Positions 12,655-62,785 of a stretch of DNA of 64,000 nucleotides are shown here, piece after piece (the first letter of the stretch is position 1; the number at the start of each line of letters is the position of its first letter). The notes below the pieces were generated by a model, which made no database searches, was not told the DNA's origin, and worked only from the letters and a program-made list of their open reading frames with translations. The stretch is from IMG/VR virus record IMGVR_UViG_3300045988_126562. One strand, written 5' to 3'. The position numbers and the translations under genes are program-made. This DNA comes from a virus.

Positions 12655-13031
12655 AATCTACATTTATCATAATAAGATTTTAGACAAAATATATATAATC
12701 TATTAGATGCTTCTACAGGAGTGTGACCATCCCATTCATTAGCCTTTTCTTTCTCTGGAATATCAAATAAATTCCAGTCTTCTACCCTATAATGGTTACT
12801 GATCTGACCTGTAGGTAATTCAGCCATCACAATAAACCAATCTCCTCCGAAACACATTTCTCCATCAGAATGCTTTCTTGACTTGTGAACATCATAGTTA
12901 CCGTGTAAAGAATTAAAAAATGCTGCATTATATAACATACGGTAACGATAAAGCTCATTAAAAGTATGAAATCCGTCTGAAACTTTATCCTCAGGAACAA
13001 ATAAATTTTTAAGTCTTTGTAATAATTTCAT
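12648..13031 (-). CDS. Hypothetical protein (HTFNELY / WDGH motifs)
   Basis: 127-aa ORF abutting the Pnkp gene. Function unknown. Confidence 0.45.
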   Translation of the reverse strand: MKLLQRLKNLFVPEDKVSDGFHTFNELYRYRMLYNAAFFNSLHGNYDVHKSRKHSDGEMCFGGDWFIVMAELPTGQISNHYRVEDWNLFDIPEKEKANEWDGHTPVEASNRLYIFCLKSYYDKCRLC

Positions 13032-13966
13032 TAGAATTTTCCTTCATTAGGTTGTAACACAGTTAAACCTAAATCTCTATACATTTGCACACATTTATAG
13101 TTATCGTCTAGTACAAACCATACATTATACTTAGGTTCGATCTTTTCCTTATAAATTTTCTCTTTAGTTGGAGCACCCTTGCTGTAATCTTTATATGGTT
13201 TAAAGAATATATCATCGTAAGGAATATAGTGATCTTTTAGCCAAGTTTTAGTAGCTTCCATAATATCTGGAGCACCTTCTCTTCCTGTTACAATAAGTAT
13301 CTTAAAGTTTTGCATATGCATAATTTGAACTAAGTCACATATAGGCTTATTTGGAATGTCAGTCAGCATACCTTCTGCTGCACCGTCTCCCCAGAAAGGT
13401 CTTTTAGTAGTATTGAAACAAAGAGTAGAGTCCATATCTACTATAATAGCATTTTCCTTATCATGGCTATATGAATCCTCCATCTTGTTCATATTATCCA
13501 CTACCCTCATTACTTCTTCGTGTATAATAAAATCTCTATATCTTTTCCAAGTATCACGAATAACTTTTTCTCCAACAGGGTTAGGTCTCATAGCATCACG
13601 ACGAATACATTCTTCAACTGGAATAAAGAAATCTTTATATTCAACTTTATATTCCCAGCCATAAATGTAATTTTCGTTAAAATCTTTAACCATATTTTCT
13701 AACTCAGCACAAGTCTTAGGGTTAAGGTTCATATTATCAACCACAATATTATAACCTTTTTCCATACTATTAGCTAGTACAGTATGGTAAGTTGCAGTAA
13801 CTATCTTCTCTCTGCTAGGAACCCAATAGTCTCCTAACATATTGCGAATATCATCATTATTAAACCTAACTCTGTGCTCTGGATCTTCATGGCACCATTG
13901 TTTAGCCCAAGTTGATTTACCAGATCCTTGAATGCCTCTACAAATAATTAATTTTCTTACCTCCAT
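13031..13966 (-). CDS. Bifunctional polynucleotide 5'-kinase / 3'-phosphatase (T4 Pnkp-like)
   Basis: N-terminal P-loop GIQGSGKST. C-terminal HAD phosphatase motifs IVDMDSTL (DxDxT), VTGR and LDDN. Confidence 0.8.
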   Translation of the reverse strand: MEVRKLIICRGIQGSGKSTWAKQWCHEDPEHRVRFNNDDIRNMLGDYWVPSREKIVTATYHTVLANSMEKGYNIVVDNMNLNPKTCAELENMVKDFNENYIYGWEYKVEYKDFFIPVEECIRRDAMRPNPVGEKVIRDTWKRYRDFIIHEEVMRVVDNMNKMEDSYSHDKENAIIVDMDSTLCFNTTKRPFWGDGAAEGMLTDIPNKPICDLVQIMHMQNFKILIVTGREGAPDIMEATKTWLKDHYIPYDDIFFKPYKDYSKGAPTKEKIYKEKIEPKYNVWFVLDDNYKCVQMYRDLGLTVLQPNEGKF

Positions 13967-15554: not shown

Positions 15555-15849
15555 ATATACTTATAATTTCTACTATCTCATTATTAACGAACCATTCTAA
15601 CTGTTTATACAAAGATTCCAATTCTGCCTCAGACAAATCAGGATTGGACATATCAGATAAAAGATCTTTTAGGGAAAAGTCCTTTTCCTCTTCTGAAACA
15701 AATAATCTTCCTAATTCGCTGCTTAATAAAATATCAGCTCTAATAAGCAAAGGGACACTTTCATCATGAATAGTGTCCCTTACAATACCTTCTACATTTC
15801 TTTTTATTCTTTTATAATCAGAGATTATTTCGTGTATGTTTTCTATCAT
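15547..15849 (-). CDS. Hypothetical protein
   Basis: 100-aa ORF in a co-oriented array. Confidence 0.4.
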   Translation of the reverse strand: MIENIHEIISDYKRIKRNVEGIVRDTIHDESVPLLIRADILLSSELGRLFVSEEEKDFSLKDLLSDMSNPDLSEAELESLYKQLEWFVNNEIVEIISIYE

Positions 15850-17210
15850 TATTGTTCAGCCTCAATATCAAATTCCCCTTTGTCCAAAGCTGCTCTCTCC
15901 TTTTCCAAGAATGCAAAACATTTTAGTTTATATACATCAATGTTAAGAGATTCATTTCTAATTACTATGCCTTCATGTGGCACTTTGTTAATGCAACGAG
16001 GACTATACATTTCCATATTAAATCTCTTATCTTTAGATAGACATTCAACGAAGTTATCATTCCAATGGTTTGTTACGTCTAAGTCAGGATATAGATTTTT
16101 TGCATACCCATAATAATATTGTTCTACAGGAGTCCATCCCATTTTTTCACATAATTGTTGAACTTGTCTAGCGCTAAACTCATATACAGCACCGTCAAGA
16201 TTGGTATAAGTAATACGATATACTTCTACTCCATAGTTTTTTCCATATTTCCATTTACTTGGAGATTCTGGTTTTTCAAATCCATAATCCCACTTTCCTT
16301 GAATAGGAGCACCATTAGGCCAATATCCTAGTATCTCGTAATATACAGTCATACCTTTTGGAAGACTACCAAATAAGAGATTATGAATCTCATTTCTTCC
16401 CATAACATCTGCTCCTCCATAATACCCAGATACTCTTTCATTTAGAATTGGATCTTGAATCACTTTTCTAGAACTGCAGAAACTATGGTATTCCTCTATA
16501 TATTTCTGCCTTCTCATTATTTTATCGAAGAATGATTTAGGAAGTTGCTTTTTAATCATTACATTTGCAGAGATTCCGGAGGTTCCATGTACTTTTGCAG
16601 TAATAGAAATCAATGAATCAGGTTTGATTACATAAGGACATTTCTTTAGGAGGGTGGTATCTACGTGATAATGGAACTGTCCTTCTAAAACTTCTGCATC
16701 TGCTTTCTTTTTAGGTTGTTTTCCTTGTTTAGATCCTGAAGTTCCAGGTGTCCTTTGATATTTCGGAACATACTTTTTACATAGCAATTTTCCATCTATA
16801 GTATCAAAATCTACTCCTACTTCAGAGTCATCAATTACAACAGGACTGTCTATAAAACAATTAAAGGATTCTATAGGAATAATAAATCCTTCGCTAATTT
16901 CTCCCTTTAATTTAATAGCCTTTACTCTTCCCTTGTCTTCAAACATCCCGGTTTTGGAATGATCAACATTCATGGAAGCATCTCTAAACAAATTATTTTT
17001 ACCTAAAAATTCTTTGTCTATACAGCACTCTACCGGAAAATAAATATAAAATCCTGGCTTTGAATCTATTCCGGTAATAACATTAAATCCATCTACCTTG
17101 CAGCATTTTAATTTAGTTACTTCTGGATTAGAATGAGAGTGAAATTCTTGGATATTCACGATTTTTGCTGCATAATTAGCATTGAAATTTTTACTTCTTG
17201 ATAAATTCAT
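15849..17210 (-). CDS. RNA ligase, Rnl2-like nucleotidyltransferase
   Basis: Motif I AKVHGTSG (KxHG, as in T4 Rnl2 KIHGTN), motif III-like YYEILGY, motif IV HEGIVIRN and motif V YKLKC. An N-terminal ~190-aa extension is unassigned. Confidence 0.65.
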   Translation of the reverse strand: MNLSRSKNFNANYAAKIVNIQEFHSHSNPEVTKLKCCKVDGFNVITGIDSKPGFYIYFPVECCIDKEFLGKNNLFRDASMNVDHSKTGMFEDKGRVKAIKLKGEISEGFIIPIESFNCFIDSPVVIDDSEVGVDFDTIDGKLLCKKYVPKYQRTPGTSGSKQGKQPKKKADAEVLEGQFHYHVDTTLLKKCPYVIKPDSLISITAKVHGTSGISANVMIKKQLPKSFFDKIMRRQKYIEEYHSFCSSRKVIQDPILNERVSGYYGGADVMGRNEIHNLLFGSLPKGMTVYYEILGYWPNGAPIQGKWDYGFEKPESPSKWKYGKNYGVEVYRITYTNLDGAVYEFSARQVQQLCEKMGWTPVEQYYYGYAKNLYPDLDVTNHWNDNFVECLSKDKRFNMEMYSPRCINKVPHEGIVIRNESLNIDVYKLKCFAFLEKERAALDKGEFDIEAEQ

Positions 17211-18508: not shown

Positions 18509-19687
18509 TTATTCCAAATCATCCCTAAAAGCTTTAAAACTTGGCTGCAAGGGAATTCCGTCTTCCGAATAATAGAAAAATTTACATTCTCCTATTTTTC
18601 CCTTATACTTAGATTCAAAGTTTTCCCAATATTCCTTTTTTAGTTCTCTGTCTCCAAAAGGTTTGGCTTTAAAGCGTTTTCCATCTTGAGTTTCTAAAAT
18701 AAAAACCATATCTTCGGATCCCCTAAGACCAGGCTCTTTATCAACAACTTTAAAGCAATCGTCCAAATATGACTTTACCTTAATCATATCATTAGTTCTC
18801 TTATTGATTCCATATGTCTTACTTGGATTACGTATAACAACTCCTTCAAAGCCTTCAGAAACATACTTATCATGCAGGGTTTTTATTTCACTCCATCCTT
18901 CACATGGGGTATGTTCTACCATAACTACCTTTATATCAGAATCTTGAAAGTATGGAGTTACTACGTCCTCTAACATTTCTAGTCTATCTTCGAATGTCAA
19001 ATTAGGATCTACTACATCATAAATCCAATATTCTAAGGCTTCACATTTACTATAAACATCAGTTTCCAACCTAGCCAGACCACTTATGTATTGTAGAGGT
19101 CTTCCATGTATATACAATTCTCCATCCAGTATTATATCAGGGTTTTCTTCAAATAACTTAATCATATCCGAATGCCCTGTTATATGTTTGGTAGAATAGT
19201 CATAATGTTGCCCTCCTCTGCTAGCTGTATGAACTTCCCCATCTTTGTAGTACATCAAGCATCGCACTCCATCTATCTTACGGCTAGCTAACCATTTTTT
19301 CTCTAAAGCAGAACTAGCTACCTTATTAAAGTCTTTAGCTAACATAGGTTTTACCATTCCGTTAGCATCTGTAGTATCAGTAGGAAGGATTTTATCTAAA
19401 TCCTCCTTAGAATATTTGCTTATCTCTTTGTCTAAAAGTTTATATCCCTTGTCTTGATATTTTTTCAAGTGGGAATTATACTCTAATCTAGCTTGTTCAG
19501 TAACAGTACGTTTAGCTTTTCCTTTACTTATTACTATTTCAGGTTGAGTAGTTATTTTTCCTCCATATTGAGAAGTATATCGTCTAATAACGAATCCATT
19601 ATGATCATCTTCCCATTGATAACTTATTTCTACTACTCTTATCTTACCTTTAGAATCCCTAGAAATTAAAGTATTTTGACCTATCAC
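18509..19687 (-). CDS. ATP-dependent DNA ligase
   Basis: Motif I SRKIDGVR (KxDG), motif [10 protein letters not shown] and motif V IKVK. Confidence 0.85.
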
Positions 19688-22947: not shown

Positions 22948-23436
22948 TTACTTCCAAAATACTTCTGTTATGTCTTCTAATCCATATATTGGATTACCTT
23001 TTTCATCTAATTCTTTACACATTTTGACTTCGTATAATCTTTGATTAGTGGTAGGACTTTTTAGACCTCCCAGTTCCTCAATATAAGGACCTAATTTAAT
23101 ATAGTTGAATTTGGATATATCTATATTTTTCGGAAGCTCTTGCCTTCCTGAATACCAGGCATATCTTAATCCAGCTATATTCCTTACTAATTCAGAAAAA
23201 TACTCTACTTCCTGTGGTTCAGAATCGCCTCCCATCATAGCTACACAGGTTATTCCTTTGTTCTTTTTAAGCAATTCCAAAAGAGAGTGGGCTGTTAATT
23301 CAGTTCCAATGTCCCCTGCCAAGTAAGAACTATGGCAGCCCTTACAATGGCATGGACAATTGGATATATTTATTGCTAAAGTAGTTTCATTAGGAATTTC
23401 CTGGAATACTACATCAGTGTTTACATATTTCAACAT
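22948..23436 (-). CDS. nrdG: Anaerobic ribonucleotide reductase activating protein (radical SAM)
   Basis: Cluster motif CPCHCKGCH, 162 aa, immediately downstream of nrdD. Confidence 0.8.
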   Translation of the reverse strand: MLKYVNTDVVFQEIPNETTLAINISNCPCHCKGCHSSYLAGDIGTELTAHSLLELLKKNKGITCVAMMGGDSEPQEVEYFSELVRNIAGLRYAWYSGRQELPKNIDISKFNYIKLGPYIEELGGLKSPTTNQRLYEVKMCKELDEKGNPIYGLEDITEVFWK

Positions 23437-25572
23437 TTATCCTTTATAATAATATCGTTTATTTGCTTCCCTTTGTCTAGCTTCACTAAAATTAGATACT
23501 CTTTTTAGATATCCTATAACTCTAGTAGCATAGTCTATATTTTTGCTTCCACAAGATGGACATTCATGTAAATATCTTTTATCTATATGTCCACACTCAT
23601 TACAGATGGTGTTAGGAATGTTAAAAGTAAAATAATTTGTTCCATTCACTGCTGCCACTTTCAGTAGATTTCTATATTGGTCTTTAGTTAAATGCTCCTC
23701 TAGGTTCATATGTAGAGCACTACCTCCATCAAGGTATTTAACATAGTCTCCACCATGTAGCTTGAATTTATCTAACACATTTAGTGTAGTATCCTCTACC
23801 TTATAGAAATAAGAATTATAACATTCTCTAGGTACTATATATCCCGATTCCTTATCCCATTTGGCATGTTTAACTCCAAGAGATTCAGCTGGAACAAATT
23901 CTGTATTAAACATAAGTTCTTTTGTTCTAGCTTTTTTATTTTCTTCACTTATAGAAGATAGAATAGATTGCATAAATTCCTTATATGTAGGATTATCACT
24001 TATGTCTATACCTAGGTATTCGGCTGCTTCTACTACTCCATTTATTCCTATAGTTAAATATTGCTTATCCAAGGAGATAAATCCAGCTTTATACACTGGC
24101 AATAATCCCTCTTCATAAAACTCTTTTAGTAGCTCATTAAAAGCAGTTTGATATTTATGTACTTTTCTAACATTTTCTCTTAGATAATCTAACATATCAT
24201 ATCCATTTCTTACTGCATTTTGCACTAAACGGTTAATATTAAGAGTCATTACTGATTTAGAACCAGTGGCAATACCCCCTGCTCCTAGAGAATAACTAAA
24301 TTGATTTTCAGTTACTTCATTCCTTAGTCTGCAACAACTTGATAAACTATCAGCAGAATCAGACATATAAGTGAAGAAGGAATGTCCTTCTGCGTACATT
24401 TCAGCGGTAAAATCAGCATACTCTTTATCGACTACATCTTGTCCATCTGTTAATAAAGCCATAGTTTCTACTGGAAACGTAAGAATAGTTTTAGTTCTTT
24501 CTTTATTGAACCACTTCATAAATTTCTTTTGAAGCCAATTAAGGGAATCCCACTTTGGTTGAGTTCCATCAGGAAAATAAAACTCTCCAAACATTCCATC
24601 GAAGTAGTTCTTATCAAAATAACTTATATTCCAGAAAATACTTTGAAATCCCCTTGCAGCAGCAGGCTGATTCATGGAATACACTATTTGTTGGAATTTT
24701 TGTTCAATTACTTTTTCTATTGTTCTGGTTTCAGTAAGTTTAGCAGAATTTATAGAATTTAATTGTGCTCCTTCTAGTGTGGTATCAGTTTCAAATCTCA
24801 TCTGGCAGTTAGCATCAGGATATTTATAATAGTCGTCACCCCATTCTTTACGGGCAAAATAATCAAAATACATTAAAAACTCACCAGTTGCTAAAGCTCC
24901 TGCAAACTGAGAACTTACAGCAAAGCACAAATTAATAAATATTCCACAGAAGGAATCTAAATTCTTTGGCTTTGCAGATAACCCTCCTAAGTCCTGTAAA
25001 CCATTTAAAAGAAATGGATACATAGTTATAGCTACACAGTATGGCATGATACTAGTTTCATCATGCTTATACAGCTCATGAGATTCCAATTGCCTAATAT
25101 ATTCTTTAGCCAAATCCTCTCCATAAAGTTCCCTAATTTTATCTACCAACCTAGCCCTATTTAATTTAATAGTATCAGCTTTAAATAATTCTGCATTAAG
25201 AGTAGCAACATTCTTCTCAGTTACGTTAGCATTAGAGTCTACTTTGCTGCCTGTGGCTGCATTAATAGCTCTGGCGTAATCTTTTATAAATTTCTTTTTA
25301 GCAATTATAGCCTGCTTTTCATCTTCCTTATACCTATATATAATAAATGTCTTAGCAACCTCTCCATAGTCATTCATCATGAGAGCGTTTTCTACTTGAT
25401 TTTGTATTTGCTGAGCACTTACTATATTTTGAAAACACATATCATCTACTATTTGATCTATGATTTCATCATCTACAGGTTCATTACAAGCATGAAATGC
25501 TTTAATTAAAGATTGTTCCAGTTTATCCCAATTAAACGGCTCTACTGTATGATTACGTTTTATTACTAACAT
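23437..25572 (-). CDS. nrdD: Anaerobic ribonucleoside-triphosphate reductase
   Basis: 711 aa with a C-terminal zinc site CNECGH...CPSCGS and a glycyl-radical motif RVIGYLKRV. Confidence 0.9.
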   Translation of the reverse strand: MLVIKRNHTVEPFNWDKLEQSLIKAFHACNEPVDDEIIDQIVDDMCFQNIVSAQQIQNQVENALMMNDYGEVAKTFIIYRYKEDEKQAIIAKKKFIKDYARAINAATGSKVDSNANVTEKNVATLNAELFKADTIKLNRARLVDKIRELYGEDLAKEYIRQLESHELYKHDETSIMPYCVAITMYPFLLNGLQDLGGLSAKPKNLDSFCGIFINLCFAVSSQFAGALATGEFLMYFDYFARKEWGDDYYKYPDANCQMRFETDTTLEGAQLNSINSAKLTETRTIEKVIEQKFQQIVYSMNQPAAARGFQSIFWNISYFDKNYFDGMFGEFYFPDGTQPKWDSLNWLQKKFMKWFNKERTKTILTFPVETMALLTDGQDVVDKEYADFTAEMYAEGHSFFTYMSDSADSLSSCCRLRNEVTENQFSYSLGAGGIATGSKSVMTLNINRLVQNAVRNGYDMLDYLRENVRKVHKYQTAFNELLKEFYEEGLLPVYKAGFISLDKQYLTIGINGVVEAAEYLGIDISDNPTYKEFMQSILSSISEENKKARTKELMFNTEFVPAESLGVKHAKWDKESGYIVPRECYNSYFYKVEDTTLNVLDKFKLHGGDYVKYLDGGSALHMNLEEHLTKDQYRNLLKVAAVNGTNYFTFNIPNTICNECGHIDKRYLHECPSCGSKNIDYATRVIGYLKRVSNFSEARQREANKRYYYKG

Positions 25573-31824: not shown

Positions 31825-32034
31825 TTAAAATTCAGATATTTCGTAAAAATTTCCTATTGCATATCCTGCTTCTTCCATAATGGCTACAAAGTCTTCCCAG
31901 TCTGCTGGAACATCCTCATCACTTGGAAGATATAGATCAATAAATCGATCCTCAGCAGATGCTAAACTTCTGGCTGTAATTTTTTCTATAAAAACAGAGC
32001 TTCCATCGAAAACAGGTATCAAATAAGTATTCAT
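31825..32034 (-). CDS. Hypothetical acidic protein
   Basis: 69-aa ORF with an ATGA overlap. Confidence 0.35.
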   Translation of the reverse strand: MNTYLIPVFDGSSVFIEKITARSLASAEDRFIDLYLPSDEDVPADWEDFVAIMEEAGYAIGNFYEISEF

Positions 32035-32831
32035 TGTTGTTTGATGAAATTATCGAAATCATTAATAACCTTAATCATCTCTTTTGGTAATATTTCCAGA
32101 GCGTAGTCTTTCATATCTTCATTCATTTCTTTCCAATAAGCATATGCTATGCTTCCAGATATTGCTCCTATTGTATCTGCATCCCCACCTAAATATATAG
32201 CATTTCTAATACAACTCTCATAGCTGGTAGATTCTAGAAAACATCTAATAGCCTGGGGCACAGACCCTTCACAACTAGAGTCAAAGGTATATCCTTTTCT
32301 TACTTTTTCAATAGGTGCATCAAAATCATAGTTTGGGTAATATTCAGAAGCAATATCAGTTAATTCTTTCTTTGTGTAACCTTCACGAGCAGACCATATC
32401 AAATCAGCTACACAATTAGCTCCTATAATTCCTTTCTTATGATTATGTGTTATTTCTGCTTGTTTGGTAGAAAAATAAAGAACATCCTCATATTCATACA
32501 AATATCCGCATGGACTAACCCTCATTGCCGAGCCATTACCATAACTACCATAAGGTTCTTTCTTGTCAGAAACTATCCATTTTTTAAATAATTTGCCGTA
32601 TCCAGCATATGGATACTTACTACACCACTTTGATACAAAAGTTGTAAAATCAGGATTCTTTGGATTATGAATAATAGCTTCAGCTACACCTATTGTACAT
32701 ACTGTATCATCAGTGAATTTCCCCTTATTTTCGAATAGGTCAAAACATGGACTATTTTGTCTAGATTTTTTAAATTCATAGGGCTGACCAAATATATCTC
32801 CTACTATTGCTCCTAATAATAAGTTATTCAT
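32031..32831 (-). CDS. ADP-ribosylglycohydrolase (ARH/DraG family)
   Basis: Motifs GAIVGDIFGQPYEF, FTDDT and GGDADTIGAISG. Confidence 0.8.
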   Translation of the reverse strand: MNNLLLGAIVGDIFGQPYEFKKSRQNSPCFDLFENKGKFTDDTVCTIGVAEAIIHNPKNPDFTTFVSKWCSKYPYAGYGKLFKKWIVSDKKEPYGSYGNGSAMRVSPCGYLYEYEDVLYFSTKQAEITHNHKKGIIGANCVADLIWSAREGYTKKELTDIASEYYPNYDFDAPIEKVRKGYTFDSSCEGSVPQAIRCFLESTSYESCIRNAIYLGGDADTIGAISGSIAYAYWKEMNEDMKDYALEILPKEMIKVINDFDNFIKQQ

Positions 32832-33106
32832 GATTGAGTTTTTGCATATTTTAAATAAGACCCTGGAAACCTATACTGTAGTTTATTATAAAATACTATT
32901 AAGTCATTTGTATTAGAATCACTACATAATGATGCTCCATTAGTAGCCGTTTCTAGCTTATAGGAATCAGAGTCCAAATCGTACAATATTACTCCTATAA
33001 AATCTCCATTTTTACTAAATACTAGAAATAAACCTTGATCTGCATTTCCATCACATAAATCTACCGTTTCATGAGAATCAGGTAGAACTACATCTAACAT
33101 TTTCAT
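32828..33106 (-). CDS. Hypothetical protein
   Basis: 92-aa ORF, overlap-coupled between the radical-SAM and ARH genes. Confidence 0.35.
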   Translation of the reverse strand: MKMLDVVLPDSHETVDLCDGNADQGLFLVFSKNGDFIGVILYDLDSDSYKLETATNGASLCSDSNTNDLIVFYNKLQYRFPGSYLKYAKTQS

Positions 33107-34053
33107 AAGTTGATTTCTTTGATTGGTTTTAGGTTAAATGAGCTGGGAGTTATTTTTACACAATCCTTAGTTAGAATAATATTCTTACTAAGAGATTCTG
33201 CTGGATACATCCAGGTTTTAATTTTATTACTCTTTTCTAGTTGATTAATAAAATGAGCACCAAAGGACACATTTTTATATTTCCAAGGATCTTTATACAG
33301 AACATCTTCTAGATACTCCCATGTTCCTTCTTGTAATCCTTCTTTACTTCTACCAGATGGCATCAGTGGTAATAACACATGATAATAAATATTTTTACCA
33401 TATTCTTCTACCACTTTTAAAAACTCATCCACTGACTTATTATCTGATATAATGTGGTGTATGTTCACTTTTACATCAGATAAAGACAATAAATTGTTTA
33501 CGGCTTTTGTAGCTCTTTCCCTTAAAACCGGGTTACTAAAGCTAACAGCTACTCCACCACAATATTTAGATGTATACTCCAATATATTTCTAGCCAAAGA
33601 AGTAGACTCATCCGATAATACAATTCCGTTAGTAGTATAATTAGGGACTACTCCGCTATCATATACTGTTTTTAGAAACTCACAAAATTGAGGATGAATA
33701 GTAGGTTCTCCAGTAGAACCAATTGCTATTTGAAAAGGTTTCTCTGTAACAATAACATTAGTACTTTCTACCTGTTTATCTTCAGGGAATGTAGCCATCC
33801 ATTTTTTCCATGTTTCACAAATGTCTTGAAAATCAGTTCCTTTATTTGTAGCACTCACATAGCAGAATGGACATTCAGCATTACACCTAGTGTTAATACC
33901 TACGTCATAAAACTCACTTCTGTCAGGTTCCAATTCACTAGCTACCCCTTTACCTAATCTTACTGTTTTAAGATTATGCCAAATAGCATGATAATTCTTG
34001 TTAGGAAATTTTCTTACTTTAATCTTACTAAATAAATCTTCGTGCTTGTTCAT
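33103..34053 (-). CDS. Radical SAM enzyme, subfamily unassigned
   Basis: CxxxCxxC as CNAECPFCY, a GSTGEPTIHP (GGEP-like) motif and NYTTNG. No C-terminal Cys cluster, so no SPASM/twitch domain. Confidence 0.8.
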   Translation of the reverse strand: MNKHEDLFSKIKVRKFPNKNYHAIWHNLKTVRLGKGVASELEPDRSEFYDVGINTRCNAECPFCYVSATNKGTDFQDICETWKKWMATFPEDKQVESTNVIVTEKPFQIAIGSTGEPTIHPQFCEFLKTVYDSGVVPNYTTNGIVLSDESTSLARNILEYTSKYCGGVAVSFSNPVLRERATKAVNNLLSLSDVKVNIHHIISDNKSVDEFLKVVEEYGKNIYYHVLLPLMPSGRSKEGLQEGTWEYLEDVLYKDPWKYKNVSFGAHFINQLEKSNKIKTWMYPAESLSKNIILTKDCVKITPSSFNLKPIKEINL

Positions 34054-34057
34054 ATTT

Positions 34058-34426
34058 TTATAAAAAATCTATTGTATAATTTCCTGGTATATTATGAGTT
34101 TTAAGAACAGCTTCTAATCCTGCTCTATAAAAGGTGTCACAGTCTTCATATCCAGAACCATATGGCATTGTTATATCAATCCATGCTTCTGGAAGATTAT
34201 TCCACTCTTCCTCACTATACCATATTTTATCCTCATCCTCCTTCTTTCTATAATCAACTACTGGGTGTATTTCTGAATCACCATCTGTAGGTAAAATCCC
34301 ACTCAGTATTTCATAGATAAATTCGCAGACGTCCTTTTCAGCGCTAATAGTGCAAAATACTTCACTACTACTGTTTGTTATTATGTCTCCGAATGATTGT
34401 ATATTAATGCCGATATTCTGATGCAT
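34058..34426 (-). CDS. TNSSSE-signature family paralogue A
   Basis: Start moved to MHQNIGINIQSFGDIITNSSSEVF (Met20 of the track ORF). Shares the N-terminal signature with five upstream genes. Confidence 0.6.
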   Translation of the reverse strand: MHQNIGINIQSFGDIITNSSSEVFCTISAEKDVCEFIYEILSGILPTDGDSEIHPVVDYRKKEDEDKIWYSEEEWNNLPEAWIDITMPYGSGYEDCDTFYRAGLEAVLKTHNIPGNYTIDFL

Positions 34427-34775
34427 AGCATTCACTCCTTGCATTGTCATAGACTTCTTCACATGTAGGAAAATGATCCTCAATCTTTACTATGTATAAA
34501 CCCTTTAAAGTATTAAATTCTTCAGAGTTATTATCTACGATTTCATCCCAATCATCAGTTCTCCAATTATATTTTATAGATAAGTAATTGCAGAACAACT
34601 CATCATATTCACTATGACTTTTTATCCAATCTAAATCTCCTATTGCACAAATATCTATGCACTCATCACTTATATTTCTATAATTGTCCACATAATATGG
34701 ATGCATTAGAAATACTTCCGAACTAGAGTTAGTTATCAAGTCACTGAATGATTGTATAGCACTTATAAATTTCAT
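34404..34775 (-). CDS. TNSSSE-signature family paralogue B
   Basis: N-terminus MKFISAIQSFSDLITNSSSEVF. Confidence 0.6.
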   Translation of the reverse strand: MKFISAIQSFSDLITNSSSEVFLMHPYYVDNYRNISDECIDICAIGDLDWIKSHSEYDELFCNYLSIKYNWRTDDWDEIVDNNSEEFNTLKGLYIVKIEDHFPTCEEVYDNARSECYASEYRH

Positions 34776-35302
34776 TGTTCTATTTTATTACCGTCATCAT
34801 CTACTATATAATCGTCTTCATTCCAGCTCAATAGCTTTACTACTCTCCCCTCTTTGTTTCTCGCTACTGGGCACTCGCAATCTACTACAAACAAATTTTC
34901 CAAAATCCAGTCTATAGTATGTGTAAACCCATGATCAATATCCACACTTATTTCCTTTTCTAGTTCTTCTAAAGGCTTCTTATTACCTATAGCATGTACT
35001 TCCTTAGTATATAAGTGTTTTTTGTTTTCGGGTATATAAGACAAATATTCTTGATAGTAATCATCAAAGGTTTTAACTTCTAATATACCTCCCATCCCTG
35101 AACTAATGTCATATTTTTCTTTTTCTTCATCTGACATTTCTACCCAATTTTCCCAACTTCCATTATACTTAAATTGGGAATGCACCTTCTCTATCAAGGA
35201 CTGTAATTCTTTTTTAGGCATATCAGTCCTAATACTGAATATTTCTGAACTGGAATTAGTTATTACATCTGAAATTGATTGGACTTTTATACTTAGTTGC
35301 AT
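34772..35302 (-). CDS. TNSSSE-signature family paralogue C
   Basis: N-terminus MQLSIKVQSISDVITNSSSEIFSIRTD. Confidence 0.6.
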   Translation of the reverse strand: MQLSIKVQSISDVITNSSSEIFSIRTDMPKKELQSLIEKVHSQFKYNGSWENWVEMSDEEKEKYDISSGMGGILEVKTFDDYYQEYLSYIPENKKHLYTKEVHAIGNKKPLEELEKEISVDIDHGFTHTIDWILENLFVVDCECPVARNKEGRVVKLLSWNEDDYIVDDDGNKIEQ

Positions 35303-35574
35303 ATCTCTAGTACTTTTAATTGTTTATTTATAAGAGGAAGTTCTTCCTTATCTATAGATACCCAAATAGACCTTTTCAAATCTGACAGAAGAGAATCATA
35401 AGATAAGGAAAAAATTTCTTCAGTGGCTAAGTTCCTCTTACTCTTTTTTACTGAATTTTTATACTTGGAAAACATTTCTCCAAATGTATATGTTATTGGG
35501 GAATATCCTAATAACTCCTTTAGAAGATTTAGAACATTATCACTATACTCAACAATAGCTAGCATCGTAATCAA
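35293..35574 (-). CDS. Hypothetical protein lacking the family signature
   Basis: 93-aa ORF interposed between paralogues D and C. Confidence 0.35.
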   Translation of the reverse strand: MITMLAIVEYSDNVLNLLKELLGYSPITYTFGEMFSKYKNSVKKSKRNLATEEIFSLSYDSLLSDLKRSIWVSIDKEELPLINKQLKVLEICN

Positions 35575-36073
35575 ATAAGCCGTTGATCTTATTCAGGATA
35601 GCTGCATTATGTATGTTACTTGGATCCTTTGATTTAATAACATAGGAAGAATCATAATACCACTCTGGATCTGATTCATTATGTGATTTAGCAAATTCAT
35701 CCAAGCTTAAACTACCACAATTATTTACCATATAGTGGTATATTTTCTCTTCTACATCGGACGCATCACTCCAGAGTCTTTTAGAAACTTTATCATCATA
35801 ATTTTTTAATAATTCCTCAAGATCTGGATGTTTACCAGGATTTTCTTCTATTTCCTCTTTAGCTTCATCAACATACCATCCATCTGTATCTCCAACTTCC
35901 AAATTATATTCCACTTTTATAGTGAATAGATCGTCGCAGGTTAAATCAGATCCAGCAGATTTTAAAACAGCATTTATAATCTCTTTTACAGCTTCTGGGC
36001 TAGTAGCCCAAGTAAAGACGGATGTAGAGCTATTTGTAATTAAGTCTACGTATGATTGTATAATGTATTTCAT
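35549..36073 (-). CDS. TNSSSE-signature family paralogue D (variant TNSSTS)
   Basis: N-terminus MKYIIQSYVDLITNSSTSVF. Confidence 0.6.
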   Translation of the reverse strand: MKYIIQSYVDLITNSSTSVFTWATSPEAVKEIINAVLKSAGSDLTCDDLFTIKVEYNLEVGDTDGWYVDEAKEEIEENPGKHPDLEELLKNYDDKVSKRLWSDASDVEEKIYHYMVNNCGSLSLDEFAKSHNESDPEWYYDSSYVIKSKDPSNIHNAAILNKINGLFDYDASYC

Positions 36074-36086
36074 TTTACTTGTGTAT

Positions 36087-36749
36087 TTATCCCAGATGTA
36101 TATGGAATCCGTTTAGTAGTTCTGTGATTATATCAAAGGTATCATAAGGAATAGAATTGTCTTCTGTACTTATTATAAGAATTTTTCCATCTAAGTATTG
36201 TAAAGTTTCTTCTTCCTTTGGATTCCACCATGACGGTAATGGTTTTCCGGATTTTTCATATTCCTGAAAAAAGATTTTGCATTTTTCTAAAGCTCCTGGA
36301 ATTTCCATCACATCATAATAATCACACCCTCTTTTTCCTTCCATTTTATATCCTAATCCCTCTAAAAAATCGAAATATTCTATAAGAAACATATAGGTAT
36401 TTTTATAGTATTTTCCATCAAGATTAGATGCACTCTCCATTCTATACCTCGCTAAAGCGTATTCGTCTTCTAAATCTATAAACCATCCTTCTACTGTGCC
36501 ATAGTAACTTCCATATCCCCAATTTCCTTTATACATTAAAGTGTATGGGTCTGCTGGTCTATTATAAAAAGCCTTTCTGTAGTCATTCAAAGAAAATCTC
36601 ATAGGTTCTTCAAACCCAGTGGTTATTTCTTTAAGAACATTAAATACTTGCTCTTCAGTTAATTTCGTATCAGTTACGAATAATTCTGAAGAAGAATTGG
36701 TCACTACGTCACTAAAGGATTGTACAGGTATAATTAGCAAATTAACCAT
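36087..36749 (-). CDS. TNSSSE-signature family paralogue E
   Basis: N-terminus MVNLLIIPVQSFSDVVTNSSSELF; 220 aa. Confidence 0.6.
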   Translation of the reverse strand: MVNLLIIPVQSFSDVVTNSSSELFVTDTKLTEEQVFNVLKEITTGFEEPMRFSLNDYRKAFYNRPADPYTLMYKGNWGYGSYYGTVEGWFIDLEDEYALARYRMESASNLDGKYYKNTYMFLIEYFDFLEGLGYKMEGKRGCDYYDVMEIPGALEKCKIFFQEYEKSGKPLPSWWNPKEEETLQYLDGKILIISTEDNSIPYDTFDIITELLNGFHIHLG

Positions 36750-37047
36750 AATATTCAGATGTTATATTTTGTGAGCCAAATATTAATTTAAGTATACTAG
36801 ATATGTCTTCTCCTACATTGCACATAACTGGATAACTTAATATCAATTCTCCAGGAGACTCTTCATAAATATCTCCAAGAATAGTATCATCGTCATCCTC
36901 TATATTATATCCCCATTTTTTAAGTATTTTATTCCATACTTCTCTGAAGGTTTCTGGAGATACGTCTGTGCGTATAGAAAATATTTCGGAACTAGAATTA
37001 GTTATTATATCTGAGACACTTTGTATATTTACTTTAAATCTTGTCAT
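36742..37047 (-). CDS. TNSSSE-signature family paralogue F
   Basis: N-terminus MTRFKVNIQSVSDIITNSSSEIFSIRTD; 101 aa. Confidence 0.6.
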   Translation of the reverse strand: MTRFKVNIQSVSDIITNSSSEIFSIRTDVSPETFREVWNKILKKWGYNIEDDDDTILGDIYEESPGELILSYPVMCNVGEDISSILKLIFGSQNITSEYYG

Positions 37048-37065
37048 AAATACAAAAAGCTGCCC

Positions 37066-37641
37066 TTATTGGGCAGCTTTAATTAATTGGTAAAAATATT
37101 CTTTAGGAAGGATTACTACTTCCCCCTCACTAGACATATTAACCTGTCCTTCTTTTACATTCTGTTTATTCCAGAATATAACGAGAGGTTTATCTTTTAA
37201 TGGACAAGCCTCTGCTATAGCATGATAAGAAGGAGTAGGTTTAGTACATTTTATTTGAGCATAAAAGGGAAGTCTGCCAGATGGATCTATTAAATCCACC
37301 TTCATGTTATCCATTTTCTTACTTTCTCCAGCCGAAGTTACTAGTTCTGGATATCCCAGTTCTTTTAATTCATTTCTTATTTTATACTCATATGCTCTTC
37401 CCTTATTTTTAGCATATTTTCCTCCTCTTCTTTTGGTTTTTGCTTTTTCCTCATCACATTTAATACATCCGCTTCTTACTAAATGCGATTTTGCTTTTTG
37501 GGTAACTTCCCCATGTATAGGGCAAATAAACGTAAATGGTTCATCTAATCCTTTGTATTCAGAAGAGGAATAGTCATATTTGTCTCCATGTTTTGGTTTA
37601 CATTTTTTCTCGATAAATTCTTCAGTCGTGTATTTAGCCAT
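37066..37641 (-). CDS. Putative endonuclease (N-terminal zinc ribbon plus PD-(D/E)XK-like core)
   Basis: CPIHGEV...CIKCDE Cys/His pairs, then E...VDLID...YAQIKCTK (D...QxK). The 5' end overlaps the primase 3' end by ~97 nt, so the start is uncertain. Confidence 0.45.
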   Translation of the reverse strand: MAKYTTEEFIEKKCKPKHGDKYDYSSSEYKGLDEPFTFICPIHGEVTQKAKSHLVRSGCIKCDEEKAKTKRRGGKYAKNKGRAYEYKIRNELKELGYPELVTSAGESKKMDNMKVDLIDPSGRLPFYAQIKCTKPTPSYHAIAEACPLKDKPLVIFWNKQNVKEGQVNMSSEGEVVILPKEYFYQLIKAAQ

Positions 37642-60391: not shown

Positions 60392-61228
60392 CAAGCTATG
60401 AGTCTTAGCTTCGACTATGTCTTAACCATATCTTTCGACTTAGGTTGCTGGTATATAGTCTGTACACATTTATAAATTGGGTTGGGCGTCAGGTGTCCCT
60501 CCGTTGTTTTCAGCCTATGTTTTCAAGGCATCCTTCTTTTAAAACATACGAACAAAAACGAATGTTCCCAATTTAACTTAGCTCGGCGTTATTTACATTT
60601 ATAAGGCTGTAACCTTCACCGAATTAGCCAGCTTCTACTTCAAGAGTTTCCTCTTGAGCACTCAATACCTTTCCTGAATAATTGTCTGTTTGTGCATGAC
60701 AATTTGGACAAAGAACTTGTAGATTTTCTAAACGATTATCTGTATGAATTCCGTTTAAATGGTGTAATTCAAGTGAAATAGGATGTCCTAACCACTCAGT
60801 TAAACCGCAGCATTCACATTTATGTTCTTTTATTCCTTCAGACAGAAGACGATTACGGATATTATGAGAAGTCCATCCTGAATTTTCAATTAAAATTTCA
60901 GAAATGTCTTTCTTTTTGATTGACGGATGTTCTCCACTTTTTAATCCTTTATTCCATCGTGCTCCTGTAAAATGACTCATATCTAAATTTAATTGTTGTA
61001 TCTTCTTTTTTACTGTATTAAGATTACCTCCTTTTGGAGATATTCCGATAATTCTACACACTTCGGCGTAAGAATGTCCTTCTTTTACAGCATTAATAAA
61101 TTGTTCTTCTGTATATTTTTTACTTGCCATGGTATATTATTTTAATACACTATTATACTAATAAAAATTGTATACACAAAAAATAATTTTAACTTAATAC
61201 TTCCAATTAATTTAGATGTAATTTTTTT
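60392..61228 (-). mobile_element. Group I intron carrying an HNH homing endonuclease ORF
   Basis: An R-like element CAGACUAUAUACC (60450-60466) and an S-like element AAGACAUAGUCG (60412-60423). A terminal hairpin AAGCUA..UAGCUU is followed by G at the 3' junction. Insertion position is 34/35, as in the classic tRNA-Leu intron. Confidence 0.65.
60624..61130 (-). CDS. HNH homing endonuclease (intron-encoded)
   Basis: Contains CECCG...HHLNGIHTDNRLENLQVLCPNCH. Alignable along its length with 54264..54734. Confidence 0.8.
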   Translation of the reverse strand: MASKKYTEEQFINAVKEGHSYAEVCRIIGISPKGGNLNTVKKKIQQLNLDMSHFTGARWNKGLKSGEHPSIKKKDISEILIENSGWTSHNIRNRLLSEGIKEHKCECCGLTEWLGHPISLELHHLNGIHTDNRLENLQVLCPNCHAQTDNYSGKVLSAQEETLEVEAG

Positions 61229-61708: not shown

Positions 61709-62785
61709 TTACATTATTTCTTTATCACAGTTAAACATAGACAATTCTATTCCTCTGAACTTAGAATATATTGGTTGAAGATCAGAAAAGCTACATTCTT
61801 TTAGATTGTTAATATAAGTTAGTTGGTCTTTGAGATCCCAACAAGTAAAACATATTTTGGAGGAAACGTTTATACCTTCTTTTTCCGTTATAATTCTGTT
61901 ACAATTAATGGAATGGTTAAGAAGATCTAAATCTAATTTAGCGTATTTTAAAGATCCTTGAAACTTATTATATACATTAATTTCTTCAGGATTAACAATG
62001 TTCTCTAGTGGTTCTGATAATATAGGCCCATTTCCATGTCTAGTTATATATATTCTAGATACATAATTTACTATTATATCTTTCACACCAATAGACTTTA
62101 TAATTTTATAAGCATTTTCTCCAGTTGTATTAGAAGGAGTAGTGTGTGGATAGAATCCAAATTTTTGATCTAGTAGTATTCCTTGAGATCCTTCAAATAT
62201 AATATTAGAAAAGCTAGGTTTTAAGAATCCTATTTTATTTCTTTTGAACCAGTTAATATAAGATTCTGCTAATTCTTCTATATTAACACAGGTTTCATTA
62301 TAATACTCTAATATAGAATTTAGCTTGGAGAGCAACACTTTTTTATTTTGACATTCTTCCACTGTAAGGGAGCAGCATTCCATAACTCTTTTAATAGCCG
62401 GCCAATATCCGGTTCCTACGGTTCCATGTTTTAAATTATCCTTATCTTTTCTTTGAAAAGATATATCCATAGGAGTAATTACTTGACATAAGGGATTATA
62501 TATTACCTTTGGAGTTACATTGAACTTTTCTAATAAAATTTTACTTTCAACTATAGCAGACAAGGGGTTTACAAAACAATACTCTGACCAATAAGTAGGA
62601 CATCCTTTAAAAGTTCCACTTCCAAAATTACTGAAAACGTGTTTTTTGTTTCCAGAAATAACTGTATGACCACTTTGTGATCCGCCACTAAATCTTACTA
62701 TAATGGAGTTTGAGTCAGATAGGTTATGCACTATCTGACCCTTGCCCTCGTCTCCAAAAAAGGCTCCTAAAACTATATGTATCAT
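61709..62785 (-). CDS. Short-form adenylosuccinate synthetase homologue (PurA family; PurZ candidate)
   Basis: N-terminal GDEGKGQIV P-loop, GGSQSGHT (compare GGHNAGHT in PurA) and GTVGTG (compare GTTGRG). 358 aa, roughly 70 aa shorter than bacterial PurA. Confidence 0.7.
   Translation of the reverse strand: MIHIVLGAFFGDEGKGQIVHNLSDSNSIIVRFSGGSQSGHTVISGNKKHVFSNFGSGTFKGCPTYWSEYCFVNPLSAIVESKILLEKFNVTPKVIYNPLCQVITPMDISFQRKDKDNLKHGTVGTGYWPAIKRVMECCSLTVEECQNKKVLLSKLNSILEYYNETCVNIEELAESYINWFKRNKIGFLKPSFSNIIFEGSQGILLDQKFGFYPHTTPSNTTGENAYKIIKSIGVKDIIVNYVSRIYITRHGNGPILSEPLENIVNPEEINVYNKFQGSLKYAKLDLDLLNHSINCNRIITEKEGINVSSKICFTCWDLKDQLTYINNLKECSFSDLQPIYSKFRGIELSMFNCDKEIM

Follow-up and report, generated by a model that had tools for sequence, protein, structure and literature searches.

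A tandem set of small phage proteins with a common TNSS motif and its radical-SAM partner: a candidate two-component cassette

Radical S-adenosylmethionine (rSAM) enzymes that are paired with cognate protein or peptide clients are a source of new chemistry. In cassettes for peptides that are ribosomally synthesised and then modified post-translationally (RiPPs), including those of the sactipeptides, ranthipeptides and streptide (SkfA/SkfB, CteA/CteB, SuiA/SuiB), tandem genes are followed by an rSAM gene. In protein-maturing systems (PflA, NrdG, the YfiD-type spare parts, anSME-sulfatase and QhpD-QhpC), one small rSAM enzyme addresses a defined loop on a cognate protein encoded next to it. To our knowledge, no rSAM-client set has been described that forms a conserved module specific to viruses and includes several folded clients. 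Here we describe six tandem genes at positions 34058-37047 of the window, by which we mean the whole 64,000-nucleotide stretch of viral DNA analysed (IMG/VR record IMGVR_UViG_3300045988_126562). Their products share an N-terminal motif built around Thr-Asn-Ser-Ser (TNSS), and an rSAM gene (33103-34053, minus strand, 316 amino acids) is the constant partner of the family. Judged from sequence, the six genes appear to be one genome's set of phage-restricted small alpha/beta proteins, and the family and its dedicated SPASM-less rSAM enzyme appear to form a self-contained two-component cassette.

The gene order of this cassette is that of the RiPP cassettes. Its tandem genes share a conserved, leader-like N-terminal segment beside an rSAM gene, this segment is flexible in structural models as a leader would be, and SuiB, CteB and SkfB are among the nearest solved relatives of the rSAM enzyme. 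The cassette differs from RiPP cassettes in that its would-be precursors are folded proteins of 95-270 amino acids with conserved orthologues rather than short peptides, its rSAM enzyme has neither SPASM/twitch clusters nor a detectable RiPP recognition element (RRE), and its motif contains no cysteine or aromatic donor. No protease or exporter is encoded nearby, the neighbours being replication and RNA-repair genes that vary by clade, and the cassette is found in phages only.

Likeness to the protein-maturing systems lies in the arrangement of the genes, in the size of the enzyme (~300 amino acids, a single cluster) and in the label "organic radical activating enzyme" carried by a homologue. 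The clients nevertheless lack the RVxG motif and any invariant glycine of the glycyl-radical enzymes, as well as the C/S-x-P/A-x-R motif of the sulfatases matured by anSME, whose SPASM domain is also missing from the cassette enzyme. They also have no cysteine in the motif. The window phage has its own separate NrdD/NrdG pair, and each cassette enzyme is accompanied by several different clients, unlike an activase. The logic of the cassette thus seems to resemble that of precursor-maturase or protein-activase pairs but to depart from both in several defining features, and we would not file it with either family because of its folded clients, the lack of SPASM/RRE, the lack of a motif cysteine or glycine, and the lack of a protease or exporter.

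The array and its radical-SAM partner

The six minus-strand open reading frames (ORFs) are paralogue F (36742-37047, 101 amino acids, a near-minimal family member), E (36087-36749, 220 amino acids), D (35549-36073, 174 amino acids), C (34772-35302, 176 amino acids), B (34404-34775, 123 amino acids) and A (34058-34426, 122 amino acids). In all six, a short hydrophobic strand is followed by QS-x-x-D-x-(I/V)-TNSS(S/T)-x-x-F, with Q, S, D, T, N, S, S and F as the invariant columns. A six-frame scan of the 64 kb for [TS]NSS preceded by QS..D returned exactly six matches, all within the array genes, and bore out the six tandem, motif-sharing paralogues of a preliminary description made from the sequence. 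Over the 45 nucleotides encoding the motif, pairwise identity is just 22-36 positions and the serine codons vary by copy; the motif is therefore held at the protein level rather than by recent duplication or gene conversion, as that description had argued. Its N-terminal signature is indeed common to all copies, but the similarity, said there to stop around residue 25, runs to about residue 45 in several pairs (46% over 46 amino acids for C and F, E = 1e-11).

For the wider comparison, ORFs were called in all fetched loci and searched with a hidden Markov model (HMM) of the motif and with the window rSAM protein. In 72 of 76 loci the tandem set was accompanied on its own strand by an adjacent rSAM homologue, usually immediately downstream with stop and start codons overlapping; the four remaining loci were contig ends, cut contigs or deletion chimeras. 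The linkage persists in contigs of 213-508 kb, including those of distant jumbo phages, where the rSAM protein is 31-37% identical to that of the window. The flanking genes in distant loci are wholly different and include RtcB, an RNA ligase, a CoaE-like kinase, an XPD-like helicase and ClpB. Adjacency of the family and the rSAM gene is thus near-obligate.

In the window itself, the array had been described as overlap-coupled to both the rSAM gene and an ADP-ribosylglycohydrolase (ARH) gene. The array does adjoin the rSAM gene, but A and rSAM are separated by 4 nucleotides and do not overlap; the MHQ start of A is preceded by AAGGAG, 8 nucleotides upstream. Between rSAM and ARH (32031-32831, minus strand) lies a gene for a 92-amino-acid protein (32828-33106, minus strand). 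ARH was found in only 3 of the 76 loci, namely the window and two near-identical relatives, and the 92-amino-acid gene in those three as well as in L001 and L009. Rather than belonging to the cassette, both genes look as if they had been inserted directly after rSAM in particular lineages. The co-occurrence survey proposed earlier thus upheld the link to rSAM and not that to ARH, and because the former adjacency is kept and the latter is not, the unit is one or more TNSS-protein genes followed by rSAM.

In several short ORFs (L046:8001-8381 and the proteins P0169, P0178, P0190 and P0219), the N-terminus of a family protein runs directly into the C-terminal portion of the rSAM protein; these are either natural deletion variants that have lost the array or chimeric assemblies.

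Motif variants match among the paralogous types of a genome. At motif position -7, comparison of the E-type protein with the other paralogues gave 59 (Q,Q) pairs, 15 (H,H) pairs and no (Q,H) pair over 39 distinct loci. All copies in the clade of the window read QS-x-S-D and all copies in a second clade read HSFVD, with E-type orthologues recognisable in both, and the H variant goes with a diverged rSAM clade. One locus, L066, is mixed, with N, H, S and D at position -7 in a single genome. As a pattern in aligned sequences, this within-genome co-variation would fit a common partner that reads the motif.

The rSAM protein carries CxxxCxxC, a GGE-like segment (STGEP) and other core motifs, together with a conserved N-terminal extension of ~45 residues and a conserved C-terminal tail (...ITPSSFNL...). 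Across 22 diverse homologues only the CxxxCxxC cysteines are conserved, and Pfam reports Radical_SAM alone; with no further conserved cysteines, the enzyme has no SPASM or twitch cluster. An identity as NrdG was ruled out, since NrdG is a separate gene (22948-23436; TIGR02826, 156 bits) that adjoins NrdD (23437-25572). Matches in NCBIfam were all below threshold (tungsten-enzyme maturase, viperin, mycofactocin maturase and Tes), as was a QueE-like match in PHROGs. A profile search of the PDB ranked Tes first, followed by SuiB, CteB and SkfB and then by TYW1 and spore photoproduct lyase; Tes is a lipid synthase, and SuiB, CteB and SkfB are peptide maturases. Relatives are labelled in databases as "MoaA/NifB/PqqE/SkfB family" or as organic radical activating enzymes. 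Among GenBank phages, the only matches were at 24% identity, to Vibrio phage D479 and to a SPASM protein of E. coli phage UPEC03, the latter considered unrelated because no TNSS genes occur in its neighbourhood.

The rSAM gene is split in several relatives (L045, L058, L060, L061, L063, L009, L051 and L077). In L045 (10710-11963) the gene is interrupted precisely at the conserved PFQIAIG|STGEP motif by a 1.25-kb insert with an ORF that resembles GIY-YIG homing endonucleases. Two rSAM homologues, among the split or intein-bearing proteins (P0274, P0372), carry a Pfam intein domain, and Rfam called no intron within the split rSAM genes.

Protein anatomy, types and distribution of the family

AlphaFold 2 models of E (mean predicted local distance difference test, pLDDT, 82.8) and D (mean 81.3) agree in their layout: the motif, then strand, helix and strand, then a helical insert of variable size, and strand, helix and strand at the end. 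Residues 1-19 of E score below 50, and the first ~20 residues of D are likewise of low confidence. The models leave the best-conserved segment unplaced, although its columns are fully populated in the alignments. Family members range from 95 to 270 amino acids, the minimal ones of ~95 amino acids consisting of the core alone, and all six window copies show the matching C-terminal strand/helix/strand pattern, of which a weak form had already been noticed in the preliminary description. Given the common core layout and the minimal members, the proteins are versions of a single small alpha/beta domain that carries a variable insert, rather than unrelated cargo behind a tag.

Among 111 diverse members, T, N, S and S were the sole invariant columns, with S, D, I and E kept in at least 90%. 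Alignment of the E-type and D-type profiles with hhalign paired just columns 7-48, and no second conserved catalytic motif common to the types was found in that comparison or among the 111 members. The core, the insert and the types kept as one copy per genome come closer to the earlier suggestion of a new fold with a variable insert.

We typed the family by clustering the bodies, with the motif removed, of 265 members from 76 loci. E-type proteins are marked by DN(S/T)IP and a C-terminal HLG; a member ending in H[L/I/M]G occurs in 65 of the 76 loci, and membership of the two E-type clusters amounts to essentially one protein for each locus. The A type is present as a single copy per locus in 50 loci, usually last and directly before the rSAM gene, and the D/C cluster is present in 61 loci. 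F and B are rare, at 5 loci each. The number of family copies per locus ranges from 1 to 6. Orthologue comparisons gave a ratio of nonsynonymous to synonymous substitution rates (dN/dS) of ~0.2 for the paralogues and ~0.06 for rSAM, rough values given that dS is saturated. From these sequences, the pattern is a conserved core set (E, D/C and A) with accessories (F and B) rather than an unconstrained, hypervariable arsenal.

In a ~98%-identical relative of the window (L006:7990-8670, also L007), the E gene has a 24-nucleotide deletion that removes the first strand, VNLLIIPV, and has also lost 1 nucleotide from a run of G, with a frameshift after ~77 codons as the result; these lesions reflect either gene decay or assembly error. 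The array of the window also holds one gene that lacks the motif, between D and C (35293-35574, minus strand, 93 amino acids). It is conserved, occurring in 9 loci with a dN/dS of ~0.18 (dS again saturated), and has no family match.

The family is large. A word-indexed search with the six-copy profile recovered 1,983 proteins (90% clusters), none with a Pfam domain, and an exhaustive HMMER search with a 47-column N-terminal profile recovered 1,867 clusters at 50% identity, part of which are fragments or chimeric contig proteins. In the HMMER matches, the motif is nearly always within the first 50 residues and the family proteins measure 90-260 amino acids. IMG/VR contributed 185 relatives, and cassette contigs span ~90 to 500 kb, large crAss-like gut phages included. 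In 185,579 species-representative genomes, a strict motif pattern based on four sequences found three loci, all of them contigs of metagenome-assembled genomes (MAGs) that carry the phage cassette: L076, L078 (Intestinibacter sp. MAG) and L077 (Methanobacteriaceae MAG). Intestinibacter was considered as a host and dropped: since the DNA polymerase PolA of the window points to crAss-like Bacteroides phages, these contigs are probably phage DNA that was binned wrongly.

No family-level match was obtained in Pfam and PHROGs for 117 members (the six copies and the 111 diverse members) or in NCBIfam for three window copies. Just three matches came out of these searches, each a singleton, and at least the one to a sulfatase domain (SGSH_C) stems from a chimeric metagenome protein. 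Sequence-profile searches of the PDB with the six-copy, E-type and D-type alignments found no match. Foldseek found nothing for the E model in the PDB and BFVD or for the D model in the PDB: its best E-value was 0.29, and its best matches covered only RRM/ACT-like beta-alpha-beta fragments of ~40 residues. No mention of the family was found in the literature. Thus the profile search suggested earlier uncovered a large family matching no known domain, which by its sequences is apparently phage-restricted and, as first supposed, undescribed.

Several known folds and motifs were considered and set aside. PP-loop, HAD, PRTase, Toprim, metallophosphatase and PIN folds had no profile or structural match in Pfam, NCBIfam, PHROGs, the PDB profiles or Foldseek. 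Resemblances suggested by the letters of the motif (a PRTase-like PRPP loop, the PIN "DTN", the metallophosphatase "SD-x-H", a pyruvoyl self-cleavage site and an N-glycosylation sequon) had neither profile nor fold support and were dropped.

What the motif may do

We tentatively favour a reading in which the common N-terminal motif is a docking and modification site for the dedicated rSAM enzyme, and put its chance slightly below even. The N-terminal tail would lie outside the private fold of each protein and act as a common docking element, which the rSAM enzyme would bind as an added beta-strand. In the docked state, the loop of invariant Thr-Asn-Ser-Ser residues would sit at the [4Fe-4S]/SAM site, where a hydrogen atom would be abstracted and the protein altered post-translationally, perhaps by epimerisation, by dehydrogenation or by cross-linking to the conserved Asp or Gln/His. 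One to six clients (core E, D/C and A, accessory F and B) would thereby be matured or activated early in infection. The status of the paralogues as substrates, the docking mode, the chemistry and the downstream role are what we infer of the enzyme's action.

We prefer this reading because rSAM adjacency survives full turnover of the flanking genes, because the N-terminal module is the only one common to all types, because AlphaFold 2 folds the body confidently but leaves the motif unplaced, and because motif variants co-vary among the paralogues of a genome. It is also favoured by the rSAM enzyme being distinct from NrdG and having SuiB, CteB and SkfB as its nearest solved relatives after Tes, by purifying selection on both paralogues and rSAM, and by the presence of protein and peptide maturases among the best sub-threshold NCBIfam matches. 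Of the hypotheses first put forward for the array, a handle for the adjacent rSAM enzyme is the best supported, the adjacency being kept across very different phages. The related notion of a leader before variable cargo stands for the common N-terminus and falls for the cargo, since all types share the alpha/beta core and form conserved orthologous types.

Several observations weigh against docking and modification by the rSAM enzyme. Characterised rSAM maturases of proteins or peptides use Cys, Gly or aromatic residues, of which the motif has none, the clients are folded proteins with conserved orthologues and not short peptides, and neither an RRE/PqqD domain nor SPASM/twitch was detected in the enzyme, whose core weakly resembles viperin and TYW1, which act on nucleotides or RNA. 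Low pLDDT in the motif can stem from shallow alignments (effective number of sequences ~2), and the Q/H co-variation may descend from a single ancestral split, with few independent events. The conserved E/D/A set could equally mean subunits of one complex.

A bolder form of the proposal is that large phages carry a dedicated radical-based protein-maturation system in which a minimal rSAM enzyme makes a novel modification on the TNSS loop of one to six folded viral proteins; we regard it as doubtful. These clients would have a fold absent from the PDB, and the modification would possibly create a protein-derived cofactor or an activated effector of early infection. If true, no earlier example is known from a virus in which several protein clients are matured by an rSAM enzyme. 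If the rSAM enzyme does modify a client, both the post-translational modification and the protein family would be new, and a block of "hypothetical" genes in some of the commonest human-gut viruses would acquire a function; clients left unmodified would speak instead for a new pathway in which an rSAM enzyme acts on nucleotides or nucleic acids. The chance that the cassette is categorically new is a real one.

The alternative that survives best, which we consider rather unlikely, is that the TNSS proteins assist the rSAM enzyme, as subunits or accessory enzymes, in acting on a small molecule or nucleic acid, the Ser/Thr/Asn-rich loop after strand 1 being a common ligand- or phosphate-binding site. 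Near-obligate rSAM adjacency fits this equally, a single-copy conserved E/D/A set resembles fixed subunits, and the alpha/beta core is common to all types. The cassette always sits amid replication, nucleotide and RNA-repair genes (NrdDG, ThyX, PNKP and ligases; RtcB in L052 and L072), and its enzyme is weakly similar to viperin, TYW1 and QueE-like models. However, the types have no second conserved motif or catalytic residue in common, AlphaFold 2 does not pack the motif into the fold, no nucleotide-binding family is matched by fold or sequence, and 3-6 different bodies per genome with an identical loop would be unusual for the enzymes of one pathway.

We find it improbable that the N-terminal strand-loop is a hetero-oligomerisation element, for example one of in-register strand stacking with Asn/Ser ladders, that joins E, D, A and perhaps rSAM in one complex whose copies must fit each other. 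Such an element would account for concordant motif variants across the paralogues of a genome, for an amphipathic strand left unplaced in monomer models and for a fixed E/D/A composition, but a single family member stands beside rSAM in L055, L070 and L072, the mixture at position -7 in L066 does not suit copies that must fit each other, and the constant presence of rSAM is not explained by assembly itself.

The preliminary description had also raised an anti-defence arsenal, in which the paralogues are diversifying inhibitors of host immunity and rSAM is a mere neighbour. A phage-only distribution, the variation in copy number from 1 to 6 with accessory types F and B, the variable inserts and the disrupted E gene of the 98%-identical relative would suit it, but orthologous E/D/A types, one copy each, recur across very distant phages as conserved sets under purifying selection, and their coupling to rSAM is near-perfect. 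We therefore rate a hypervariable arsenal as highly improbable; as an account of a role and not of a mechanism, anti-defence is in any case compatible with modification by the rSAM enzyme. Least credible of all is a capsid-targeting propeptide, an idea first raised by analogy with T4, that would be cut after ...S-S-E by a prohead protease of the T4/phiKZ type to deliver proteins into the virion: T4 internal proteins and phiKZ-type propeptides likewise set a short common N-terminal element on otherwise dissimilar small phage proteins, the tail is conserved and flexible in models, it is usually followed by Glu, and S-x-E resembles known sites (Ser/Ala/Gly-x-Glu for phiKZ-type prohead proteases, Glu at P1 for T4 gp21), but it is T-N-S-S that is invariant and not the Glu (window D reads TNSSTSVF, and other members have V, Q or T in its place, as in TNSSTV, TNSSSQ and TNSSTT), the genes form a tightly packed string in the replication module, and the obligate, always-adjacent rSAM gene is given no role.

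Genome context

The window is a one-strand block of replication and nucleotide-metabolism genes, with PolA, ThyX, PNKP, DNA and RNA ligases, helicases, NrdD/NrdG, a Toprim primase, a DnaB-like helicase and a PD-(D/E)XK exonuclease. Its PolA is closest to those of crAss-like Bacteroides phages (48-51% identity), one relative of its rSAM protein was deposited as "Crassvirales sp.", and the contigs of its relatives measure ~170-190 kb; together these indicate a crAss-like gut phage with a large genome as the source of the window. Among GenBank phages, the array had no DNA or protein match, and no close relative or cultured member was found there.

The array follows a nuclease gene, as first described, but a terminator-like hairpin (37056-37080, minus strand; 10-bp stem, T-rich tail) separates that gene from F and is probably the 5' boundary of the transcription unit of the cassette.

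RNA-repair genes recur near the cassette. In the window, the entries at 13031-13966, 15849-17210 and 18509-19687 include PNKP and a gene resembling RNA ligases. In two divergent loci the gene directly upstream of the array is RtcB (L052:6332-7543 and L072:6714-7901), and in a third it is an RNA ligase (L062:6701-7834).

Three further features lie outside the cassette. A 358-amino-acid homologue of adenylosuccinate synthetase, encoded at 61709-62785 on the minus strand of the window, falls far short of the PurA cut-offs and reaches only 29 bits against PurZ; a diverged PurA and a PurZ-like enzyme (2-aminoadenine DNA) are the two candidate identities. A 168-amino-acid ORF at 60624-61130, also on the minus strand, has weak HNH-type matches (ZorE and IscB models) and is probably a free-standing homing endonuclease. 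Finally, the replication module of a related phage carries a group I intron (L045:4121-4400; Rfam, 57 bits).

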